Assembly: GCA_028694995.1 (NCBI GenBank) | Contig: JAQVJU010000001.1 | Location: forward strand, 80,492 to 144,491 | Direction: 5' to 3' | DNA: 64,000 nucleotides | DNA from: Minisyncoccota bacterium | GTDB taxonomy: Bacteria > Patescibacteriota > Minisyncoccia > UBA6257 | Part shown: positions 4,683 to 63,043 of the stretch, piece after piece | How the letters are laid out: each line of letters begins with the position of its first letter | Position numbering within the stretch: position 1 is the stretch's first letter | The notes under the pieces: generated by a model | Seen by the model: only the letters and a program-made list of their open reading frames with translations | Database searches by the model: none | Told to the model about the DNA's origin: nothing | Translations under genes and position numbers: made by a program

Positions 4683-5849
4683 ATGTCAATTGAGACTCCA
4701 TCATTTGAAAACCTAAGAAGACAAACAGAGGAAGAAGTAACCGAAAGACTTGAAAAAGAAAGCCTACAAAGGAATATACAAGGAATGGATGAATTAAGAA
4801 GAGAACTAGATCAAGAATACAAAGAAATAGAAGAAAAGGAATACAAAGCTATTGAAGATAGAAATGAGATAGACAAAATCCAACAACAGCATGATAAACT
4901 GTCTTATTTAACTAAGGCCTATGAATTAGAATTAAAAGATATTGAACCAGATAAACCAGAATCAACATTAAAACCAACACCAAAAATAGATAAAGAAAGT
5001 ACACAGGCGCTAATAGCTAAAATAGATAATTGGAGAGAAAAATTAGATCAAGAATATGAAGAAATAGAAAAGAAAGAATACAAAATTCCTGAAGATTTTG
5101 AAGAACAGAAGATAATAGAAAAACAACATCAAAAATTATCTAATTTGGTAAAAAAACTAGAGCAAGAATTAAAAGAAGAGCCAAAAATAAAACTAAAACC
5201 AGAAAGCCCTTTGCCATCTTCAGAGGAAGAGTTTAAAGAATCTGCTGAACTTTTAAAAACGCTTCAAGAAGCTTCTGGGTATGAAGAAATATATGAAACT
5301 GAAGAACAAAACGATAAGAAAAACCAAGAAGAAAGCTTGGCAAAAGATACAAGTAAATCAGAAGCTGTTGAGCAAGAGAAAAAAGACAATGAAATAGAAA
5401 AAATAGAACTAGAGCTAAAAAGAACAGCTTTTAGGCATGGAAAAGACACTGAAAATATATGGCACCCAGATAATGTATGGCAACATATAAAAGACTCTTC
5501 TAATATATTTAATGATCCAGAAAAACAAAAGGATTTGATGGCCTTAAAAGATGATGTTGAAAAAATAGCAGAGGAAACAGATAATGCTTTTGAAAAACAT
5601 CCTCGTGCAATAAATAATGCATTTAAATTTATTAAAAAACAAGGAAAGAAAGGATTTGAAAAGCTTGGAACAATGAGCAAGAAAGGACTTGAAGTAATGG
5701 GGAAAGCAGGAAAAAAAGGAATTGAATCACTCGGAACAATTCTTGGTGTCTTTGCCTCAGGGATATTATTAGTATTAATCCTTTTTATGCTTTTAGAATT
5801 AAAAGCTGTTGATAAATTAGTTGATGCTGGTGGTAAAGTAAAAATTTAA
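4683..5849 (+). CDS. E/K-rich coiled-coil repeat protein with C-terminal TM anchor
   Basis: It contains two ~55 aa tandem repeats (LDQEY[KE]EIE.KEYK...) and three KKG[FLI]E.[LM]G. repeats, plus a C-terminal hydrophobic helix GILLVLILFMLL. It lies 5 nt after clpP and is not ClpX. Confidence 0.5.
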   Translation: MSIETPSFENLRRQTEEEVTERLEKESLQRNIQGMDELRRELDQEYKEIEEKEYKAIEDRNEIDKIQQQHDKLSYLTKAYELELKDIEPDKPESTLKPTPKIDKESTQALIAKIDNWREKLDQEYEEIEKKEYKIPEDFEEQKIIEKQHQKLSNLVKKLEQELKEEPKIKLKPESPLPSSEEEFKESAELLKTLQEASGYEEIYETEEQNDKKNQEESLAKDTSKSEAVEQEKKDNEIEKIELELKRTAFRHGKDTENIWHPDNVWQHIKDSSNIFNDPEKQKDLMALKDDVEKIAEETDNAFEKHPRAINNAFKFIKKQGKKGFEKLGTMSKKGLEVMGKAGKKGIESLGTILGVFASGILLVLILFMLLELKAVDKLVDAGGKVKI

Positions 5850-8176: not shown

Positions 8177-8905
8177 TTATTCAGATAGTTCGCTTGGTAA
8201 TTTTATTGTTATTGGCTGACAATTAATTGCTTGTGTTTCAGAAATTAAAGGTGTGGCTCCAAATAAACCAAAGTCACGCAGATAAGCAACAATTATATTA
8301 TTAGGCAAGTAAACACCTTTGACTATTCCAAAAGGAATTTCTGTGCTTAACCATATTTCTGTTTCATAATCATCTACAAATTTGGCAGTTTGAATTGTTT
8401 TTCCAGTTTCTGTTGTATAGGTATCATATGTGTATCTGTTTATTGAGCTGTATTTGGCCGGAGTAACTATTGTGGGTAAATAAGCGGTTAGGGTTGGAAA
8501 TAATGTTTCCATTAAAGGAACATTAACACATATTATATCTTGACCTTGTTTTTCCTTGCTTGCCATTTTTACAATCTCATCATTAGTATAATCATACCAA
8601 ACCTGAAGAACAGAACCGGAGTTATTGTAAGCATTAGGATCTGTTTCCACTCCATAAATCCGTACTCCTTCTAAAGAAGACTCTCCAAGATAAATTGATC
8701 TTTGCAAACTTTCATTGCCTTCTTCATCATAGACTATTAATTCAGACCAGGCACCTTTTTCAGGCAATAGAAATCCTGTATAAATATCTGAATCCCAGCC
8801 AAGCTTGATTTTGTCTCTCTTTGAAAAAAAGAAAACAAAAAGCAAAAGACCAATTAAGAGCGCGCTAGCAAGAATAATGATTATTTTTTTATATTTTGGA
8901 TTCAT
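8177..8905 (-). CDS. N-terminally membrane-anchored exported hypothetical protein
   Basis: The ORF track gives 8177..8983. The likely start is the internal Met (MNPKYKKIIIILASALLIGLLL...), which avoids overlap with rsmA. There is a single N-terminal TM helix. Confidence 0.4.
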   Translation of the reverse strand: MNPKYKKIIIILASALLIGLLLFVFFFSKRDKIKLGWDSDIYTGFLLPEKGAWSELIVYDEEGNESLQRSIYLGESSLEGVRIYGVETDPNAYNNSGSVLQVWYDYTNDEIVKMASKEKQGQDIICVNVPLMETLFPTLTAYLPTIVTPAKYSSINRYTYDTYTTETGKTIQTAKFVDDYETEIWLSTEIPFGIVKGVYLPNNIIVAYLRDFGLFGATPLISETQAINCQPITIKLPSELSE

Positions 8906-8969: not shown

Positions 8970-9785
8970 TTGTCAAAACACACTATGTCATTTATTAAAC
9001 AAAAAAAATTAGGTCAGGTTTTTCTTAAAGACCAGTCTTTTGTTAATAAAATCATCAAAGCAGGGCAAATTAATGAAAAGGATTTGGTTTTAGAAATTGG
9101 CGCTGGAAAAGGAATTTTAACCCAAGCATTGTTAAAAACTAAAGCTCAAGTCATTGCTATTGAGAAAGACCCAGGGCTTGTAAAATTTCTTAAAAAACGA
9201 TTTAAAAACAATTCAAATTTAAAAATTATCCAAGGAGATATTAGGGATTTTTTAATTTCTGATTCTCAAATCCTAAAATCTAATTTTAAGGTTATAGGTA
9301 ATATCCCTTATTATTTAACCTCACATTTAATCAAGTTATTATTAGAATTAGAAAAACAACCAAAGGATATTATTTTAATGATTCAGAAAGAAGTTGCTCA
9401 AAGAATAATTCAAAAACCTTCAAAAATGAATTTATTAGCTATTTCTGTTCAATTTTATGCTCATGCTAAAATTATTTCCTATGTGCCTAAAACTGCTTTT
9501 TCTCCAAAGCCAAAGATAGATTCAGCAATTATACAAATCACTCCTTTTATTGATATTAAAAGGACAAAGGCTGCTAAGCAATCTTTTTTTAAAATTGTTA
9601 AAGCTGGTTTTAAACAACCAAGAAAGCTTTTAATTAACAATCTTTGTTTAAATCTTAAAATTGACAAAAAGATTATTGAAAAATCTTTTAAAAAACTAAA
9701 TCTGCCTTTAAATATCAGGGCTCAAAACCTATCTTTAGACCAATGGACTTGTTTATCTTTATTATTAATAAATAATAAGTTATAA
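8970..9785 (+). CDS. rsmA: 16S rRNA (adenine1518/1519-N6)-dimethyltransferase
   Basis: It has KsgA motifs (LGQVFLKD, the SAM-binding LEIGAGKGILT, and NIPYYLTSHLI). Confidence 0.85.
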   Translation: MSKHTMSFIKQKKLGQVFLKDQSFVNKIIKAGQINEKDLVLEIGAGKGILTQALLKTKAQVIAIEKDPGLVKFLKKRFKNNSNLKIIQGDIRDFLISDSQILKSNFKVIGNIPYYLTSHLIKLLLELEKQPKDIILMIQKEVAQRIIQKPSKMNLLAISVQFYAHAKIISYVPKTAFSPKPKIDSAIIQITPFIDIKRTKAAKQSFFKIVKAGFKQPRKLLINNLCLNLKIDKKIIEKSFKKLNLPLNIRAQNLSLDQWTCLSLLLINNKL

Positions 9786-35593: not shown

Positions 35594-35824
35594 ACAGTTG
35601 TATTATACTTTACAATTCTTTACATAGCAAAGTAGATAATTCTATACAGATATGTTTTAAAACATTGCCTAGGCCTTAATCCAGATGTAACATTTCTTTT
35701 AACTAATAAAGTTTTATTTAATATTTAACATTGACTTTATCTTAATTTAGTGATATAGTATACACATTGAGTTGTGAGTTTTTTTGTTCTTTGAAATTTA
35801 ATAAATAAGAAAGGAGAGGTAATC

Positions 35825-36151
35825 ATGTTAATTAAGAAAAGACTAATAAAAAGCAATGGAATAAGGTTTTCAGCCCAAATCAACGGGAAGGAAGTGGGTA
35901 GAGCCTATCTCTATGTTCTCTTTAATGATTTACACCCTAAGCCTTTTGGGTTGTTAGAAGATGTGTTTGTTGAAGAAGAGTTTAGAGGTAAAGGAATAGG
36001 AACATCTTTAACCAAGGCTGTAATAGAAGAAGCTAAGCCTTTGTGTTATAAACTAATTGCTACTAGCAGGTATTATAGGCCTGCAGTGCATCAGTTGTAT
36101 CAAGGGCTAGGGTTTATGCATTGGGGGAAAGAATTTAGAATAGATTTTTAA
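35825..36151 (+). CDS. GNAT-family N-acetyltransferase (small)
   Basis: It has acetyl-CoA binding motif A (EDVFVEEEFRGKGIGTSLTKAVIEEA). A strong RBS AAAGGAGAGG lies 6 nt upstream. Confidence 0.7.
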   Translation: MLIKKRLIKSNGIRFSAQINGKEVGRAYLYVLFNDLHPKPFGLLEDVFVEEEFRGKGIGTSLTKAVIEEAKPLCYKLIATSRYYRPAVHQLYQGLGFMHWGKEFRIDF

Positions 36152-36169
36152 AAACAAAAGGAGGTGGCA

Positions 36170-36658
36170 GTGGTGAGAACAAGAAGACAAAAGTTTTTAA
36201 TAGTTTTGTTTGCAGTATTGCTATTTATAGTTTTGCAAGCAGAAGCCAAAGGGATAGAAGAATACAAGATAAGCTTTACATTTTGCGCCAATGACAATAA
36301 TTGCGTAGTAAGGCTTAAGGATCCTTTTGGAGAATTGTCTTATAATGAAACACTAGAGGTAGCTCCTTTATTAATAGATGGAACAGACTGGGATATTTTT
36401 CTTCCTTTAAAAGACTTGGTAAGAATGATGGGGGGATTTATTCGTTGGTATCCTAGGAATAAACAGGTTGAGGTAATTTTTCAAGGAGACCAAGTGTTTT
36501 GGGTTTTTTCTTTAATTGATAATCCTAAAATTCTTGTTTTTCATGGGAAAATAATGATTTCTACAAAATTTGTTGTTGAAAACTTAATTCCAAGCGAGGT
36601 GTTCAGGAACAAGGCTTTAAAGACTATAATTTTAACCTGGCCTCTTTCTCTAGATTAA
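36170..36658 (+). CDS. Exported protein with copper-amine-oxidase-N-terminal-like (Firmicutes-type) domain
   Basis: It has a signal peptide and segments (VAPLLIDGTDWDIFLPLKDLVRMMGGFIRWYPRNKQVEVIF) that resemble the Cu-amine-oxidase N-domain repeat. The RBS is AAAGGAGG, and the GTG start was chosen by spacing (the track starts at 36164). Confidence 0.4.
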   Translation: MVRTRRQKFLIVLFAVLLFIVLQAEAKGIEEYKISFTFCANDNNCVVRLKDPFGELSYNETLEVAPLLIDGTDWDIFLPLKDLVRMMGGFIRWYPRNKQVEVIFQGDQVFWVFSLIDNPKILVFHGKIMISTKFVVENLIPSEVFRNKALKTIILTWPLSLD

Positions 36659-36676
36659 AAGAAAGGAGAGAAAGAA

Positions 36677-36847
36677 ATGGAAAAGAAAACAAAAGATAAA
36701 TGTGTAATTTGTGGAATTGAAACCAGATATAAAAACAATGTACATATTCAGCTAAGAGAAAATTATATCGAAGGTGGAGGACAATTATGTCAGGATTGTT
36801 GGGAGGATTTATATAAAAAGAAAAAATATAAAAAAGAAAGGAGGTAA
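36677..36847 (+). CDS. Small CxxC...CxxC zinc-ribbon protein (56 aa), paralog of next gene
   Basis: Manual translation gives MEKKTKDKCVICGIETRYKNNVHIQLRENYIEGGGQLCQDCWEDLYKKKKYKKERR. The RBS is GAAAGGAGAG. Confidence 0.5.
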   Translation: MEKKTKDKCVICGIETRYKNNVHIQLRENYIEGGGQLCQDCWEDLYKKKKYKKERR

Positions 36848-36851
36848 AAGA

Positions 36852-37061
36852 ATGGACACAAAAGTTAAATGTTCTGCCTGTGGCGGTAAAACAGCTTATA
36901 ATTCATTGAATAGAAAAAGGTTCGTTGAAGGATGGGGGCAACTATGTGTAAGTTGTTGGAGGGACTTGGGAGAGAGTTACCCTTTCCCAATGTTTCTTGA
37001 AAGAAAGAACTTCTCCAAAAAAAAGAAAATTTTCTGGGGGAGGAAAAATAAAAGGAGGTAA
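36852..37061 (+). CDS. Small CxxC...CxxC zinc-ribbon protein (69 aa)
   Basis: The protein is MDTKVKCSACGGKTAYNSLNRKRFVEGWGQLCVSCWRDLGE.... The RBS is AAAGGAGGT. The ORF track's longer N-terminus (36774) overlaps the previous gene and lacks an RBS. Confidence 0.5.
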   Translation: MDTKVKCSACGGKTAYNSLNRKRFVEGWGQLCVSCWRDLGESYPFPMFLERKNFSKKKKIFWGRKNKRR

Positions 37062-54018: not shown

Positions 54019-54090
54019 GCCGAGGTAGCTCAACGGCAGAGCAACGGTTTTGTAAACCGTAGGTTGGAGGTTCAAATCCTCTCCTCGGCT
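54019..54090 (+). tRNA. tRNA-Thr (anticodon UGU)
   Basis: GCCGAGGTAGCTCAACGGCAGAGCAACGGTTTTGTAAACCGTAGGTTGGAGGTTCAAATCCTCTCCTCGGCT forms a cloverleaf with an anticodon stem ACGGT/ACCGT. Confidence 0.85.
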
Positions 54091-54098
54091 CTTAATCT

Positions 54099-54185
54099 GG
54101 GCAGGTGGCAGAGTGGACAATTGCACGAGACTGTAAATCTCGCGGCCTTAGGCCTCCATAGGTTCGAATCCTATCCTGCCCACCA
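54099..54185 (+). tRNA. tRNA-Tyr (anticodon GUA), long variable arm, CCA encoded
   Basis: GGGCAGGTGGCAGAGTGG...GACTGTAAATCTCG...GGTTCGAATCCTATCCTGCCCACCA. Confidence 0.85.
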
Positions 54186-54193
54186 GAACCTAA

Positions 54194-54265
54194 GCCGAAG
54201 TAGTTCAGTGGCAGAACGCTTTCTTGGTAAGAAAGAGGTCGTGGGTTCAATTCCCACCTTCGGCT
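54194..54265 (+). tRNA. tRNA-Thr (anticodon GGU)
   Basis: GCCGAAGTAGTTCAGTGGCAGAACGCTTTCTTGGTAAGAAAGAGGTCGTGGGTTCAATTCCCACCTTCGGCT. Confidence 0.85.
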
Positions 54266-54295
54266 CAGAACAATAATAAATAGCAAAAATCAGTC

Positions 54296-54454
54296 ATGAA
54301 AAAAGAACATATTGTTAAATTACAATGCACAGAATGCAAACAAATAAATTATTATACTCGACGTAATAAGAAATTAGTTGAGCGTAAGTTAGAATTTAAA
54401 AAATATTGCCCTTGGTGTCGTAAACATACAATTCATAAAGAAGGCAAAAAATAA
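54296..54454 (+). CDS. rpmG: 50S ribosomal protein L33
   Basis: Manual translation gives [52 protein letters not shown] (52 aa, zinc ribbon). It is below the ORF-track cutoff. Confidence 0.85.
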
Positions 54455-54480
54455 CAATATTTGATAAAATACATTCTAGA

Positions 54481-54553
54481 AGGGGCGTAGCTCAATTGGC
54501 AGAGTAGCGGTCTCCAAAACCGTTGGTTACAGGTTCGAGTCCTGTCGCCCCTG
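54481..54553 (+). tRNA. tRNA-Trp (anticodon CCA)
   Basis: AGGGGCGTAGCTCAATTGGCAGAGTAGCGGTCTCCAAAACCGTTGGTTACAGGTTCGAGTCCTGTCGCCCCTG has an anticodon loop CTCCAAA. Confidence 0.8.
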
Positions 54554-54558
54554 CTCAT

Positions 54559-54582
54559 AAATCGCTTTAAGGGCGATTTTTT
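54559..54582 (+). terminator. Intrinsic terminator after tRNA cluster
   Basis: AAATCGC-tttaagg-GCGATTT is followed by TTT. Confidence 0.6.
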
Positions 54583-54597
54583 GATACAATAAAATAC

Positions 54598-55527
54598 ATG
54601 GAAAATATTATTGAAGTTAAACAATTAAAGAAAGATTTTGATGGTTTTGATGCAGTGAATAATATTACCTTTAATGTGAAAAAAGGTGAGGTTTTTGGTT
54701 TGTTAGGACCTAATGGAGCTGGCAAAACCACAACCATAAGAATGTTAATAGGAATATTAAAACCAACTCAAGGTGAGGTTTTTATAAAAGAATACAATGT
54801 TAGGAAAGAACCAATTAAAGTAAAGCAAATAATGGGAATTGTTCCTGAATTTGCTGATGCTTATACAGATTTATCTGCTTTGAGAAATCTTTTATTAACT
54901 GGAGAATTATATGGAATAGAAAGAAAGAAAAGTATTCAAAAAGCTATATCTTTATTAAAAAAGTTTGAATTATATGAAAAAAGACATCAAAAAGTAAAAA
55001 CTTTTTCAAAAGGAATGAGGCAGAGATTGATTTTAGCCATGGCCTTAATGAATGATGCAGAAATTTTGTTTTTAGATGAACCCACCTCTGGATTAGATGT
55101 AGAAAGTACAAGATTAATCAGGCAACTTATTAGAAAATTTAACAAAGATGGGGTTACTATTTTTCTTACTACTCATAATATAGAAGAAGCAGATTTACTT
55201 TGTGACCGAGTGGCCATAATGAATCAAGGGAAAATTATAGCTATTGATCGCCCTGAATTATTAAAAAACATTATGAAAAAGATTTCTTCTATAGAAGTGG
55301 CTTTTAAAAAAGATTTAAAGGAGGAAGATTTGTATTTTAAGGGAGTTGAAAAGGTTAATAAGATGGGGGATAAATTTCGTATATTTGGTGAAAAAACATT
55401 AGAGATTATTCTCTCTTTAATAAAATATTCTAGAAAATCTGAAAATGAAATCATTTCTTTAAGAATGATAGAGCCAAGTTTAGAAGATATTTTTGTAAAA
55501 TTAACAAATAAAAATGAAAATCCTTGA
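54598..55527 (+). CDS. ABC transporter ATP-binding protein (ABC-2/export type)
   Basis: It has Walker A GPNGAGKTT, the signature SKGMRQRL and Walker B LFLDEPTSGLD. Confidence 0.85.
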   Translation: MENIIEVKQLKKDFDGFDAVNNITFNVKKGEVFGLLGPNGAGKTTTIRMLIGILKPTQGEVFIKEYNVRKEPIKVKQIMGIVPEFADAYTDLSALRNLLLTGELYGIERKKSIQKAISLLKKFELYEKRHQKVKTFSKGMRQRLILAMALMNDAEILFLDEPTSGLDVESTRLIRQLIRKFNKDGVTIFLTTHNIEEADLLCDRVAIMNQGKIIAIDRPELLKNIMKKISSIEVAFKKDLKEEDLYFKGVEKVNKMGDKFRIFGEKTLEIILSLIKYSRKSENEIISLRMIEPSLEDIFVKLTNKNENP

Positions 55528-56254
55528 ACAATTAAAAAGATCTTTTGCGATTACTAAAAAAGATTTATCCATTTATTATTTAAAAGGATCAGTTATTATT
55601 CAGGGATTATTAATTCCAGGCTTTGTTTTTATTTCTTTTATTTTTAGAAGAGAAATGCCTATTGATTCAATAATTCCTGGTTTACTAGGTATGGCTTTGT
55701 TTTTTACAGTTTCTGCTATTACACCAGTAATTACTCCCTGGGAAACAAGGATGAGAACTTTTGAAAGATTAGTTTCTTCGCCAATTTATCTTTGGACAAT
55801 TATTTTAGGGGATATTGTAGCTTCGGTTTTATTTGGTCTTTTTGTGGTTTCCTTTATTATGCTAGCCGGTATTTTATTATTAGGTGTGGAGATTATTAGT
55901 TTTCCTTTAATTTTAGGAACTATAGTTGCTGCCTTTTGTTTTTCTAGTTTAGGGACTTTAATTTCAGCTCCACCAGCTGATAAACCCTCTGATATTATGC
56001 TCATTGCTTCTTTGATTAAATTTCCTTTAATTTTTATTAGTGGAGTTTTTGTTCCAATTACTGAAATGGGAAAACTTAAAATTTTATCTTTTTTTTCTCC
56101 TTTAACTTATTATACAGATTTGGCTAGATATTCTATGCAGGGGATTAGTTTACTTTCTCCCTTTGTTAATATTTTAATTCTTTTTATTTTTACGATTTTA
56201 TTGTTCTTGTTTTCTTTAATATGGCATCACAAGAGTTTAGATAAGAGATTTTAA
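55514..56254 (+). CDS. ABC-2 family transporter permease
   Basis: The 246 aa protein has 6 predicted TM helices. It overlaps the ATPase gene by 14 nt. Confidence 0.75.
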   Translation: MKILEQLKRSFAITKKDLSIYYLKGSVIIQGLLIPGFVFISFIFRREMPIDSIIPGLLGMALFFTVSAITPVITPWETRMRTFERLVSSPIYLWTIILGDIVASVLFGLFVVSFIMLAGILLLGVEIISFPLILGTIVAAFCFSSLGTLISAPPADKPSDIMLIASLIKFPLIFISGVFVPITEMGKLKILSFFSPLTYYTDLARYSMQGISLLSPFVNILILFIFTILLFLFSLIWHHKSLDKRF

Positions 56255-56304
56255 GAATAATTTATCTACAACAAATTAGGAGTTTTAGTTAGTATTTTTG
56301 TCAG

Positions 56305-56333
56305 TTGACCAATTTATATTCTAGTGGTATTAT
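56305..56333 (+). promoter_or_regulatory. Sigma70-like promoter copy A (TTGACC-N17-TATTAT)
   Basis: The consensus hexamers have 17-nt spacing. A near-identical copy lies at 57626-57654. Confidence 0.5.
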
Positions 56334-56389
56334 ATAAGATATCTTTTTGGGAATATTTTTTCTTAAAAAGAAAGAACTTTACAAAAAAA

Positions 56390-56533
56390 ATGAAAGAATC
56401 GATAAAAACAGAGCTTCAAAATCAAATTCAAGTATTGGAGCAAGAACAAATAAGAGTCGAAAATTTTATAGGAGAACAAGAAGGAAAGTTTAATTTATTT
56501 AGCTGGTTGATAAAATGGTTTAATAACGGCTAG
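56390..56533 (+). CDS. Small coiled-coil peptide (47 aa)
   Basis: The protein is MKESIKTELQNQIQVLEQEQIRVENFIGEQEGKFNLFSWLIKWFNNG. The ATG sits within the conserved leader. The track ORF 56324 has an implausible N-terminus overlapping the promoter. Confidence 0.35.
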   Translation: MKESIKTELQNQIQVLEQEQIRVENFIGEQEGKFNLFSWLIKWFNNG

Positions 56534-56629
56534 TTAATTTAGTTAGAAAAAAATAAATTTTAAAAGAGTAATCCATTAGAAGAAAACCCCGATAAAATAA
56601 AACATTATTTCGATAAGTAAGTTTGAGCG

Positions 56630-56645
56630 TTATCTATTAGGCTCT
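56630..56645. repeat. 16-bp direct repeat TTATCTATTAGGCTCT copy 1 (copy 2 at 57282-57297)
   Basis: The copies match exactly over 16 nt. The flanking AGC-N also matches. Confidence 0.6.
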
Positions 56646-56761
56646 GCCAAATATTGACTTTTAACATAAAATATGGTATATTTATAATACTCTAAAATAG
56701 AGTATTTTTAGTTCTTTAACAAAAATTAAAATATAAAAATTATAAGAAAGGAGAGAAGATA

Positions 56762-57196
56762 ATGGAAAATAAGATTAAGTTTTTTAATGATTTAAAAGAT
56801 TTGCCAAAAAAAGAAGAAATTCTTGAAATGAAGGTTGCAAAATGGATAAAATGGAGATATGATTTTGTGCCTGCTACAAGAGAAGGAAATAACTTCAGTG
56901 TATTAAACTTTGGACATGTGGAACAAGGGTTTCAAGAGATGGAACCAAATATTGTTGCAATTTTGGACCCAAAATACTGCTGGTTCGTTAGATTTTTCAT
57001 CGTCGAAGATTATGATGTTATAAGTTTAATCAATCTAAGCGATAAAGAAAATTGGACTATGGAAATATATGGTCGGGCGTATGTTGACTGTTTAACAAGA
57101 TTGGCAAAAAAGATGGCAAGAGATTTTAATGTTTCAATATCTTGTCATCTAGTCAAAGAAAAACCAGGATTTCTAAGTATTCCATACGTATGGTAA
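56762..57196 (+). CDS. Hypothetical protein (144 aa) in repeat-flanked cassette
   Basis: It has a strong RBS AAGAAAGGAGAG. No recognisable domain is present. Confidence 0.4.
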   Translation: MENKIKFFNDLKDLPKKEEILEMKVAKWIKWRYDFVPATREGNNFSVLNFGHVEQGFQEMEPNIVAILDPKYCWFVRFFIVEDYDVISLINLSDKENWTMEIYGRAYVDCLTRLAKKMARDFNVSISCHLVKEKPGFLSIPYVW

Positions 57197-57226
57197 AAAC
57201 AAAAGTTAAAATTTCTTTATCAATAT

Positions 57227-57261
57227 GCCCCAACAAAATTATTAATAGTTGGGGCTTTTTT
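57227..57261 (+). terminator. Intrinsic terminator
   Basis: GCCCCAAC-14 nt loop-TTGGGGC is followed by TTTTTT. Confidence 0.6.
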
Positions 57262-57281
57262 ATATTAAACAGGTTTAAGCA

Positions 57282-57297
57282 TTATCTATTAGGCTCT
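57282..57297. repeat. 16-bp direct repeat TTATCTATTAGGCTCT copy 2
   Basis: See copy 1. Confidence 0.6.
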
Positions 57298-57625
57298 ACT
57301 CATAAAATCGCTCTTAAAGGCGATTTTATGATTCAAATGAAGTTTATATAAAAAATAATGTTTAGGTTAAATAAAAGCTTTTAAAAATAACTTATCCACT
57401 ATTGACAATGCTCTTGCTTGCTATAAAATTTATATCAGAGGATTAATGGGTTGGTCTTCCATTTCCTTAGTAACTATAAAAAGAGTTTGAATTGTTTTTA
57501 ACAGTTTAAAATCTTTAAAAAATATGGCCAAAAAAAAGAAAGGCGGCAAAAAAAAGAAATAGTCGCTTAATGGAAATTGTTTAATCTGGCGTCAGTATTT
57601 ATTACTGGCGCTTTTTATTTATCAA

Positions 57626-57654
57626 TTGACTAATTTAGATTATAGTGTTATTAT
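57626..57654 (+). promoter_or_regulatory. Sigma70-like promoter copy B (TTGACT-N17-TATTAT)
   Basis: It is a paralog of the promoter at 56305. Together with the leader, about 80% identity extends over ~100 nt. Confidence 0.5.
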
Positions 57655-57734
57655 ATGAATACCTTTTAGGATAAAAATAATCTTAAAAAGAAAGAACTTT
57701 GACAAAAAAATATGAAAGAAAGGAGGTGATTTAG

Positions 57735-58271
57735 GTGAAAAAAGACAAGGAAAAAGAATTGCTTGATAAGACAGAAGTGTATGAAAGGAATATAAAAAAG
57801 ATTAAAAGCCATAGTTCTCTAGAAAGTGCTTACATAATTTTCCCTTATAATCAAAAAGAGCTTTTAGTGCCAGATAAGGATTTTTGGCTTGATATTACAA
57901 ACAAGATGAGCTTAAGGGATTTAATTATTTGCTCTCCAAATGCTTTGATAAATAGTCAACCAGAGATTGTCGAAAATCAATGTTTGATTACTGCAAATGA
58001 ATTTACTTTTAAATATTGGGAAGAAGTAAAGACTTACTTAATGATTGCAGGAATTACTAACTTGATAATTATTAGTTCTGATATACATCTTCCCAGGATT
58101 TTACGAGATTTTTCCTTTGTGTTTAAGAATAAAAGAGAAAATTTGCATGTGGGAATTAAAACAATCAGGATTGCAAATTCTTTTTGGAAAATGGTTTATA
58201 AGATTAGAGAGAGAATTGTTGCCTTACTTCCATTAAATTTTTATAAATATTTAGGAGAAGAAAGGATGTAG
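57735..58271 (+). CDS. DUF218 (YdcF/SanA/ElyC)-like domain protein
   Basis: ISSDIHLPRI resembles the DUF218 S..HM.RA motif. It has a GTG start with RBS AAGGAGGTGA. Confidence 0.35.
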   Translation: MKKDKEKELLDKTEVYERNIKKIKSHSSLESAYIIFPYNQKELLVPDKDFWLDITNKMSLRDLIICSPNALINSQPEIVENQCLITANEFTFKYWEEVKTYLMIAGITNLIIISSDIHLPRILRDFSFVFKNKRENLHVGIKTIRIANSFWKMVYKIRERIVALLPLNFYKYLGEERM

Positions 58272-58273
58272 AG

Positions 58274-58672
58274 ATGTTAAAGAATCATTTGGAAAGAAAT
58301 ATATTGAGAAATCGGCCGTATTTTGGAGGGCTAGAAAGTGATCAGGTTAGAAATATTCCTGATCTAAATCACTGCGACGAGGGAGAATGTATTCTAACTT
58401 TTAATATCCATTCAGGGGTAGGTGGATTATTTAAAGTTATTAGTTGTCCGTTTAAGGGTCAAGATGGTTATTGGCGTATTTTCTTAGAGGAACAAGGTCC
58501 TTATTGCAGAGTGCATGACATTCAAGTTAGATTAGATGAATATAGTGTAGTTTGTTATCCCAACCTTGAGTGGGAAAAAGAGTGGTGTTTTTTAAAAACA
58601 AGCATTACTGCTTTCAAAGAATTAAAGAAATTAAGAATACACAGGGAAGATTATCTTCCAGTGTATTATTAA
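58274..58672 (+). CDS. Cys-rich hypothetical protein (132 aa)
   Basis: It has HCDEGEC, ISCPF, PYCRVHD and VVCYP. It is translationally coupled to the upstream gene. Confidence 0.35.
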   Translation: MLKNHLERNILRNRPYFGGLESDQVRNIPDLNHCDEGECILTFNIHSGVGGLFKVISCPFKGQDGYWRIFLEEQGPYCRVHDIQVRLDEYSVVCYPNLEWEKEWCFLKTSITAFKELKKLRIHREDYLPVYY

Positions 58673-58685
58673 TTTACTAAAAATA

Positions 58686-58716
58686 AAGCCCTTGCTGTTA
58701 TTCAGGAGGGCTTTTA
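58686..58716 (+). terminator. Intrinsic terminator
   Basis: AAGCCC-loop-GGGCTT is followed by TTTT. Confidence 0.55.
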
Positions 58717-58753
58717 AATTTTAAAATGTTTTTATGTTATACTGATTGTATAT

Positions 58754-59437
58754 ATGTCTTCTCAGCAAGAATTGATTCAAGAAACAATTGATCTTGGTTA
58801 TTTAAAATCTCCTCAGATTATAGAGGCTTTTTTAGCTATAGACCGAAAAGATTTTGTTATTCCTGAAAACCAAAATGAAGCTTATTTAAACACTCCTTTA
58901 TCAATAGGTTTTAGTCAAACAATTTCTCAGCCTTTAACAGTTGCTTTTATGTTGGAATTGTTACAACCCAAGATTGGGGATGTGGTTTTGGATATTGGTT
59001 CTGGCTCTGGGTGGACTAGTGCCTTGCTTTCATATTTAGTAAGTGATGGCGGAAAGAATAAACAAGGAAAGGTAATTGCTATTGAAAGAATTTTAGAATT
59101 AAAAGAATTTGGTGAGAAAAATACAGCAAAATACAATTTTGTGGAGAAAAATATTATAAAATTTTTTTGTGCTGATGGTTCTAGGGATATATTAAAAATC
59201 AGTCAACAGCTTGATTTAAAAGAAGGATTTGATAAAATTCTTTGCTCAGCAACATTAGAACAAATGCCTCAAGAATGGATAGATTTATTAAAGACAGGAG
59301 GAAAAATTGTTGCTCCTTTTCCTGGAGAAATTCAGCTCTGGGTTAAACAAGATAAAAATACTTTTAAAAAAGAATTTTTTAAGGGATTTAGTTTTGTGCC
59401 TTTGATTTCTGATGATAAAGAATCCAGTTGTTTTTAA
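58754..59437 (+). CDS. pcm: Protein-L-isoaspartate O-methyltransferase
   Basis: It has the SAM motif VLDIGSGSGWTSALL and a C-terminal FVPL. Confidence 0.85.
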   Translation: MSSQQELIQETIDLGYLKSPQIIEAFLAIDRKDFVIPENQNEAYLNTPLSIGFSQTISQPLTVAFMLELLQPKIGDVVLDIGSGSGWTSALLSYLVSDGGKNKQGKVIAIERILELKEFGEKNTAKYNFVEKNIIKFFCADGSRDILKISQQLDLKEGFDKILCSATLEQMPQEWIDLLKTGGKIVAPFPGEIQLWVKQDKNTFKKEFFKGFSFVPLISDDKESSCF

Positions 59438-61828: not shown

Positions 61829-61902
61829 TGCGGGGTGGTGTAAAGGTAGCACGTCTCCCTTTGGAGGAGAAGATCGGGGTTCGAGTCCCTGCCCCGCAGC
61901 CA
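61829..61902 (+). tRNA. tRNA-Gln (anticodon UUG), CCA encoded
   Basis: TGCGGGGTGGTGTAAAGGTAGCACGTCTCCCTTTGGAGGAGAAGATCGGGGTTCGAGTCCCTGCCCCGCAGCCA has an anticodon stem TCTCC/GGAGA and a loop CTTTGGA. Confidence 0.7.
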
Positions 61903-61935
61903 ATTAGAGCCAGCTCAAAGATAGGAAAATACCTT
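61897..61935. repeat. 39-bp imperfect direct repeat copy 1 (overlaps last 6 nt of tRNA-Gln); copy 2 at 63005-63043
   Basis: CAGCCAATTAGAGCCAGCTCAAAGATAGGAAAATACCTT matches CAGCCAATTAGGGCTAGCTTAGAGATAGGAAAATACCTT at 35 of 39 positions. Confidence 0.7.
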
Positions 61936-63004: not shown

Positions 63005-63043
63005 CAGCCAATTAGGGCTAGCTTAGAGATAGGAAAATACCTT
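63005..63043. repeat. 39-bp direct repeat copy 2 (putative attR-like site)
   Basis: See copy 1 at 61897-61935. Confidence 0.7.

Follow-up and report, generated by a model that had tools for sequence, protein, structure and literature searches.

A duplicated promoter-leader module flanking a strain-specific orphan block at the ORF178-ORF132 operon of an uncultured Paceibacteria lineage

A 64,000-nucleotide (nt) stretch of contig JAQVJU010000001.1 from a Minisyncoccota bacterium (assembly GCA_028694995.1), referred to below as the window, carries two look-alike promoter-plus-leader modules. Copy A lies beside the permease gene of an ATP-binding cassette (ABC) transporter, and copy B lies in front of a two-gene operon designated ORF178-ORF132 (ORF, open reading frame). 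Sequence comparisons indicated that the module is the native sigma-70-type promoter and 5' untranslated region (5'-UTR; ~85 to 95 nt) of this operon, which is narrowly distributed in Paceibacteria. The two copies are likely to be paralogues of this one promoter and leader, which arose when the segment was duplicated locally or when two alleles of the locus underwent additive recombination, rather than a dispersed element or an RNA switch.

Results

Two module copies with matching promoters

Copies A (56297-56400) and B (57618-57720) were found to be direct repeats of ~104 nt on the plus strand, 1,320 to 1,321 nt apart. A first-pass annotation of this DNA had described two similar modules with TTGAC[CT]-N17-TATTAT promoters facing different genes, and this description was borne out: pairwise alignment gave ~80% identity, copy A faces the ORF47/ORF144 side, copy B faces ORF178, and each promoter also has a TGn extended -10 motif. 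Overall identity was roughly 75 to 80%, with 85% in the 39-nt promoter block and 77% in the 53-nt leader block, and a 19-nt leader core, CTTAAAAAGAAAGAACTTT, was identical in A and B. The promoters, TTGACC-17-(TGg)TATTAT in A and TTGACT-17-(TGt)TATTAT in B, both combine a -35 element near TTGACA, a spacer of 16 to 18 nt, TGn and a -10 element near TATAAT, the features of a sigma-70-type extended -10 promoter. With up to 3 mismatches allowed, the 35-nt promoter pattern occurred at only these two places in the window and in none of 100 dinucleotide shuffles. The broader pattern TTGAC-N15-19-TGnTAnnAT had 5 occurrences in the window, compared to an expected 0.18, and the module promoter is a member of the ordinary strong promoter class of this genome.

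The same 6-kb arrangement recurred at 99.98 to 100% identity in assemblies of other samples (L001, SRR12486999; L003, ERZ27247361). Since these independent assemblies carry it, the two-copy arrangement is not an artefact or a chimeric contig. Several independent metagenome contigs have an end near the module: window position 57522 is the first in both L002 and L095 and 57623 the first in L004, and L098 ends at 56386. Breaks at or near a repeated module or its A-run are the behavior expected of an assembler at a repeat or a strain-variable junction.

One module in sister lineages, at the ORF178-ORF132 operon

Five homologues of ORF178 were detected, at 99, 81, 78, 54 and 45% identity, and the family had only 13 representatives among 1.84 billion proteins; a Rossmann-like fold is predicted for ORF178. 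The two sister lineages are those with the 81% homologue (L005 to L010 plus L019, metagenome-assembled genome [MAG] STE_68) and the 54% homologue (L011 to L013). All of these loci have the same gene order, namely, the permease gene, an intergenic region of ~150 nt with one module, the ORF178 homologue, the ORF132 homologue and pcm. Because the sister lineages hold a single copy between the permease gene and ORF178, the module was assigned to ORF178-ORF132 as its native promoter and 5'-UTR. In alignments to these lineages, the flank on the permease side is preserved at copy A and the flank with the Shine-Dalgarno (SD) motif, GTG and ORF178 at copy B; the one module of L005 shares 92% identity with copy B. 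The ~1,320 nt between the copies has no counterpart in the sister lineages. In more distant Paceibacterota (L015, L017, L022, L023, L025 and L028), a TTGACTA...TAGTG[G/T]TAT[A/G/T]AT promoter precedes the ORF178 homologue, with a different gene upstream.

The flanking core genes of the window were 94 to 98% identical to those of both sister lineages, and the ABC genes were 94 to 97% identical at the nucleotide level. For ORF178, nucleotide identities to L005 and L011 were 87 and 68%, and for ORF132 they were 72 and 66%. Variation in this operon was hypervariable and mosaic; the L015 locus, for example, has the 5' end of the window's ORF178 but another leader. This pattern suggests diversifying selection or frequent allelic recombination.

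A decayed colinear copy between the modules

The right part of the block between the modules resembled resident DNA from upstream of copy A. Positions 57296-57374 aligned with native segment 1 (Table 1), which runs from the end of tRNA-Trp into abcA, with a score of 56, compared to a mean of 26.4 (standard deviation, 2.7; maximum, 41) for 300 shuffles. Positions 57376-57399 matched native segment 2, at the end of the permease gene, with a score of 28 that was reached by 4 of 300 shuffles. The resulting decayed copy, U', lacks ~1.6 kb of ABC coding sequence. Three paralogous pieces were thus colinear and in direct orientation, and close relatives have the single-copy state. The three pieces indicated that copy B is part of a larger, collapsed duplicate of the region from tRNA-Trp to the module. 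The copied unit is not joined head to tail to copy A: 866 nt (56401-57265) between them remained unmatched.

Copies A and B were compared site by site, with L005 and L011 as outgroup lineages. A agreed with L011 and B with L005 at 8 sites, and the opposite pairing was seen at 0 sites; 11 changes were unique to A and 3 were unique to B. The flanks concurred, the intergenic sequence left of A being L011-like and ORF178 being L005-like. The 8-to-0 pattern indicated two different alleles, from which the copies descend or by which they were converted. A diverged strain may have contributed the duplicated unit through recombination; alternatively, an L005-like allele may later have replaced copy B together with the hypervariable operon.

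Table 1. Features of the module locus (window positions)
Feature	Position	Strand	Description
Native segment 1	54551-54624	+	Last 4 nt of tRNA-Trp (gene 54481-54554), terminator, first 27 nt of abcA
ABC transporter	abcA (ATPase) 54598-55527; ABC-2 permease 55514-56254	+	Left neighbor of the module, conserved in all close lineages
Native segment 2	56246-56269	+	Permease gene end, stop codon, first intergenic bases; paralogous to 57376-57399
Copy A promoter	-35 TTGACC 56305-56310; TG 56325-56326; -10 TATTAT 56328-56333	+	Predicted +1 near 56339-56341
Copy A leader	Stem-loop 56342-56371 (12 bp); ATG 56390	+	GAACTTT box with A-run; adjoins permease side
ORF47	56390-56533	+	47 codons; start codon and first three codons (MKE) from leader, rest insert DNA
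Repeat R1	56614-56645	+	Core GTTTGAGCGTTATCTATTAGGCTCT; left member of 32-nt direct pair around ORF144 cassette
ORF144 cassette	56654-57262	+	Own promoter-like sites 56654-56688, strong SD GAAAGGAGAG, ORF144 56762-57196, intrinsic terminator
Repeat R2	57266-57297	+	Right member; at tRNA-Trp 3' end position relative to copied terminator
Decayed copy U'	57296-57399	+	Terminator copy, abcA start with ATG to ATA change, directly abutting permease end and stop codon
Extra 0.2 kb	57402-57616	+	Not in native intergenic region; without counterpart in sister lineages
Promoter TTGACA-16-TAAAAT	57402-57429	+	Ahead of ~180-nt predicted transcript 57436-57616
12-codon ORF MAKKKKGGKKKK	57525-57563	+	Lysine-rich, no SD, within ~180-nt transcript
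Terminator	57588-57612	+	End of ~180-nt transcript
Copy B promoter	-35 TTGACT 57626-57631; -10 TATTAT 57649-57654; predicted +1 near 57660-57662	+	
Copy B leader	Stem-loop 57664-57688; upstream ORF (uORF) 57712-57729; SD GGAGG 57722-57726	+	Includes GAACTTT box; contiguous with ORF178
ORF178-ORF132 operon	ORF178 57735-58271; ORF132 58274-58672	+	ORF178 with GTG start; present in all sister lineages

Proposed sequence of events

We propose that a 1.32-kb block came to lie in the short permease-ORF178 intergenic region of this strain lineage. Its right part would be a decayed direct copy comprising the tRNA-Trp end and terminator, the abcA start, the permease end, the intergenic sequence and the module, and the ABC genes would have been lost from the duplicate. 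Copy A, beside the permease gene, would then transcribe the new segment from near 56339-56341, and ORF47 would start at the leader's own ATG. There was no terminator between ORF47 and ORF144, so transcripts from copy A probably reach ORF144 and end at 57227-57261. The terminators at 57227-57261 and 57588-57612 would insulate ORF178-ORF132, and hence copy B would keep the original operon expressed. As both copies share the promoter and the 5' stem-loop, expression of the original operon and of the orphan genes would be expected under the same conditions.

Several points weigh against this explanation. The explanation does not account for the source of positions 56401-57265 (ORF47 body, R1 and ORF144), which had no match in the window, the fetched loci, phages or plasmids, and DNA of foreign appearance would not be expected at the junction of a plain tandem duplication. 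Taken alone, the 24-nt piece at 57376-57399 was only marginally significant, as the shuffles above indicate. Among contigs that carry the exact ORF178 protein, its 99% variant or the permease, there was no insert-free strain of the same sub-lineage, all being insert bearing or truncated, and the pre-insertion state is consequently drawn from lineages that are ~5% diverged. Recombination between the two repeats may instead have removed the block from the relatives, in which case there was no gain here. An identity of 75 to 80% may reflect an old duplication, relaxed constraint on A, which has more unique changes than B, or a donor allele, all of which it fits alike. Promoter activity, +1 positions and stem-loop function are inferred from sequence, and the search for further copies covered only 64 kb of the strain's own genome.

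Gene content of the interposed block

The conserved ATG of copy A had been said to open a 47-amino-acid (aa) peptide, and this ORF was confirmed. Neither ORF47 nor ORF144 had a homologue other than itself among 5.8 billion proteins. ORF47 lacks an SD motif, like most genes of this genome, and its codon score of 0.19 is gene-like, but 6 to 10% of wrong-frame ORFs score equally well. The four cassette ORFs had no match below E = 0.1 in Pfam, PADLOC or NCBIfam, the only match in any collection being a weak one in PHROGs for ORF144 (E = 0.048). Comparisons of the insert DNA with phage genomes and of ORF144 with plasmids also yielded no match, and single-sequence structure prediction for ORF144 was uninformative (predicted local distance difference test [pLDDT] score, 38). 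The cassette terminator consists of a stem at 57227-57255 followed by a T-run, the whole spanning 57227-57261.

Resident genes were considered as a source of the ORF47 body and ORF144. DNA alignments to rpmG, the tRNAs, abcA and the permease gene were no better than those of shuffles. In BLASTP comparisons, the best E values for ORF144 were 0.10 against AbcA and 0.52 against the permease, and ancestry from either was unsupported; a start-to-start likeness between ATGGAAAATAAGATTAAGTT and ATGGAAAATATTATTGAAGTT, noted in examining this ancestry, was not significant alone. The insert also shared 16 nt with sites at 8387 and at 9217; these sites are within coding regions, and the matches were attributed to chance.

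The extra 0.2 kb next to copy B has its own promoter-like sequence and terminator. The ~180-nt transcript predicted between them had a minimum free energy (MFE) of -45.5, compared to -30.4 ± 3.5 for shuffles (z = -4.3), and the region had no Rfam match. We regard 57402-57616 as a candidate small RNA gene.

Repeats around the ORF144 cassette and the possibility of a mobile cassette

The 32-nt repeats R1 and R2 were 84% identical (0 expected by chance), unique in the window and shared the core GTTTRAGCRTTATCTATTAGGCTCT. R2 has ACAGGTT in common with the 3' end of tRNA-Trp; comparisons of R with the tRNA cluster scored no better than those with shuffles, and the suggestion that R is a tRNA 3' fragment was not significant on sequence alone and is retained as a positional observation. 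R was not found in viral contigs.

An insert that is strain specific, carries orphan genes and lies between direct repeats could be a mobile cassette acquired by site-specific recombination, in a tRNA-linked islet or an integron-like array, with the module or R as the attachment (att) site. The nested repeat pair around ORF144, the location of R2 where the tRNA-Trp 3' end would be expected, the variability between lineages of the slot from tRNA-Trp to the module, and another islet of the window, whose 39-nt flanking repeat begins in the last 6 nt of tRNA-Gln, are all consistent with such an origin. We nevertheless consider it quite unlikely. No integrase or recombinase is encoded in or adjoining the insert, with neither a tyrosine nor a serine recombinase among the cassette ORFs, and the repeats are long and only 80 to 84% identical, unlike fresh att cores. 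R, besides its absence from viral contigs, had no significant likeness to any tRNA. Furthermore, the right part of the insert copies resident flanking DNA, including the abcA start and the permease end, which points to local duplication.

Lineages differ in what occupies the slot from rpmG/tRNA-Trp to the module. The window has a tRNA cluster at 54019-54554 (Thr-TGT, Tyr, Thr-GGT, rpmG and then Trp) directly upstream of the ABC transporter genes; L005 (4531-8058) has three extra genes before abcA; and in L017 (1-626), L022 (about 5250-5400), L023 and L025, a 136-aa cysteine-containing protein replaces the ABC transporter.

The tRNA-Gln islet is defined by a 39-nt direct repeat (61897-61935 and 63005-63043; 90% identical; tRNA-Gln gene, 61829-61902) that brackets 1.1 kb with two ORFs. 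In sister strains, tRNA-Gln is directly followed by a 190-aa gene, and the window strain therefore carries an island at this position. According to locus L001, the island continues into genes for a DUF4268 protein, an N6/N4 DNA methyltransferase and a ResIII helicase.

Search for further copies and for a regulon

The first-pass annotation had proposed a duplicated regulatory element, for example a shared regulator-binding site, and had suggested a search for further copies. A degenerate promoter signature fitting A, B and all orthologues, TTGACYAWTNNATNNTNTAGTGKTATNAT, was used. It matched 5 times in 185,579 species-representative genomes and 5 times in JGI metagenome contigs, never more than once per genome. 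Every match in Paceibacterota was upstream of an ORF178 homologue, and the other four were unrelated promoters in Clostridia and elsewhere. No additional module copy was thus obtained, the relatives have one orthologous copy each, and the proposal of a shared element was not upheld; on this sequence evidence, the module pair is not a dispersed element family.

Two sets of weaker matches were discarded. An 18-mer of the leader had 66 matches in viral contigs, of which one (L093) had a partial promoter-like motif (TTGAC.AAT) and none had the TAGTG extended -10; since the promoter context is missing, these are chance matches to an A-rich word. A weak third leader-like match at 37000-37028 is inside a lysine-rich ORF tail and is not a module copy.

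The identical -35/-10 geometry and the 19-nt identical block in both copies, the persistence of a GAAC(C)TTT box in distant orthologous leaders and a similar TAGTGnTAT -10 element at a third accessory cluster (35748) might suggest that the module is the platform of one transcription factor that co-regulates accessory cassettes, the duplication having been selected for this purpose. This appears very unlikely. With a single copy in relatives and one signature match per genome, no regulon is visible, and there is no regulator gene in the locus. Nor was a dyad-symmetric DNA operator present, the sole symmetry using strand-specific G.U pairs, which points to RNA. Co-regulation, moreover, follows from the duplication itself and makes a dedicated factor unnecessary.

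The leader RNA

A stem-loop directly follows the -10 element in every version of the module. It has 12 bp in A (-11.1 kcal/mol; z = -3.4), 9 bp in B (-5.2 kcal/mol) and 7 to 8 bp, followed by a T-run, in distant orthologues; in the distant lineages, a hairpin with a T-run may also terminate transcription of the upstream gene. The stem contains G.U pairs on the plus strand only, and compensatory differences were seen between A and B and among distant orthologues (ATG...CAT versus ATA...TAT). Within the close group, this was the sole conserved hairpin, with 9 pairs, one of which had a double-sided change. The stem-loop is probably a 5'-terminal mRNA structure that affects stability, likely as a stabilizer, and a ligand- or peptide-sensing switch is unlikely.

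The first-pass annotation had also raised a leader peptide or an RNA switch as the function of the module and had suggested an analysis of leader structure across relatives. RNAalifold predicted 0 pairs, and hence no consensus structure, for eight leaders. Rfam 15 returned nothing at the gathering score and, at E ≤ 10 over 56200-58800, nothing in either module. Whole-leader folds were no better than those of shuffles (z = -0.3 to -1.6), and no alternative terminator/antiterminator hairpins were found downstream of the peptide. The MKERR uORF of copy B reads ATG AAA GAA AGG AGG TGA from 57712, as described by the first pass; it overlaps the GGAGG at 57722-57726, and its stop codon lies 6 nt before the main start codon, GTG 57735. 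The leader ATG is missing from L011/L012, L015 and L022, and by inspection L017 has one at the equivalent position, so that this codon also occurs outside the close relatives of the window. Where present, it opens different peptides: copy B has the 5-codon uORF, L005 an out-of-frame ORF of 17 codons and copy A the 47-codon ORF47. Neither the leader peptide nor the switch was sustained by these results.

A cis-regulatory RNA, be it a riboswitch, a leader-peptide attenuator or an SD-sequestering thermosensor, might be read into the conserved 5' stem-loop with its compensatory changes, the terminator-like hairpin and T-run of the distant orthologues, and a CCUUU/CUUU box that by inspection could pair with the AAAGGAGG SD, but it is the least probable explanation in view of the negative Rfam, RNAalifold and folding results, the inconstant uORF ATG and peptide, and a ~90-nt A-rich leader that is too short to house an aptamer.

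Translation signals of accessory genes

Of 51 long ORFs, one had an SD motif, a lower frequency than the 10.5% for random 17-mers. A strong GAAAGGAG[GA] SD precedes ORF144 (56745-56761), ORF178 (57716-57734) and a four-gene cluster at 35825-37061 (region 35733-37061). This cluster adjoins genes for a DNA methyltransferase and an excisionase-like helix-turn-helix protein and has a module-like TAGTGATATAGT extended -10. From their sequences, accessory genes seem to use translation signals other than those of core genes.

Discussion

As a regulatory element, the module is an ordinary strong promoter with its leader, and it can be struck off as a candidate for a new RNA switch or regulon. What the locus documents is a strain-specific orphan block wired to an existing promoter in uncultured Paceibacteria, with the original operon keeping its own copy. 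The hypervariable two-gene operon and the variable slot downstream of tRNA-Trp are possible strain markers or a possible test case for the origin of orphan genes.

A bolder suggestion is that the locus is a snapshot of gene birth in a reduced-genome bacterium of the candidate phyla radiation (CPR). After the duplication, a surplus active promoter with its 5'-UTR would have faced sequence without coding ancestry; an ancestrally meaningless leader ATG would have become the start of a new 47-aa protein, and the orphan ORF144 would be on the same captured promoter. We think this unlikely. Three islets in the window have imperfect direct repeats of resident sequence, 30 to 100 nt in length (the module, R and tRNA-Gln pairs), and these could reflect an uncharacterized, integrase-independent form of gene addition in these bacteria.

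Comparison with known systems

The locus resembles tRNA-adjacent islets in having a strain-specific insert with orphan cargo, flanking direct repeats, a variable slot downstream of tRNA-Trp and a comparable islet at tRNA-Gln in the same window. It differs from them in that there is no integrase, and the diverged repeats consist mostly of tRNA-downstream sequence and the promoter rather than of the 3' half of a tRNA.

Orphan or de novo genes on existing promoters are a second point of comparison. ORF47 has no homologue and lies behind a duplicated, presumably active promoter, and its ATG belongs to a non-conserved part of the 5'-UTR in relatives. The likeness stops at the body of ORF47, for which descent from ancestral non-coding DNA is not demonstrable, and the gene-like codon usage of ORF47 is not decisive. 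A search of the literature on promoter duplication combined with de novo genes found nothing specific.

In the 5'-UTR of Escherichia coli ompA and in the Bacillus subtilis aprE and ermC leaders, 5'-terminal stem-loops stabilize the mRNAs. The leader studied here is similar in that every orthologue has a hairpin a few nucleotides from the predicted +1 that is kept despite sequence change, followed by an unstructured A-rich spacer and then the ribosome-binding site. It is dissimilar in the hairpin and T-run of distant orthologues, which may double as a terminator of the upstream gene.

The closest parallel is segmental, tandem-type duplication followed by decay. Colinear, direct paralogous pieces are present here and absent from sister lineages, the redundant ABC genes have been lost from one copy, and the promoter and leader have been kept at both ends. 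Unlike in such duplications, the junction here contains ~0.9 kb of orphan DNA, and the copies are 75 to 80% rather than nearly identical. The two module copies also resemble different alleles, so inter-strain recombination or gene conversion is needed beyond simple duplication. Duplication of a promoter and leader by local rearrangement is a familiar type of event, to which this locus adds an example.

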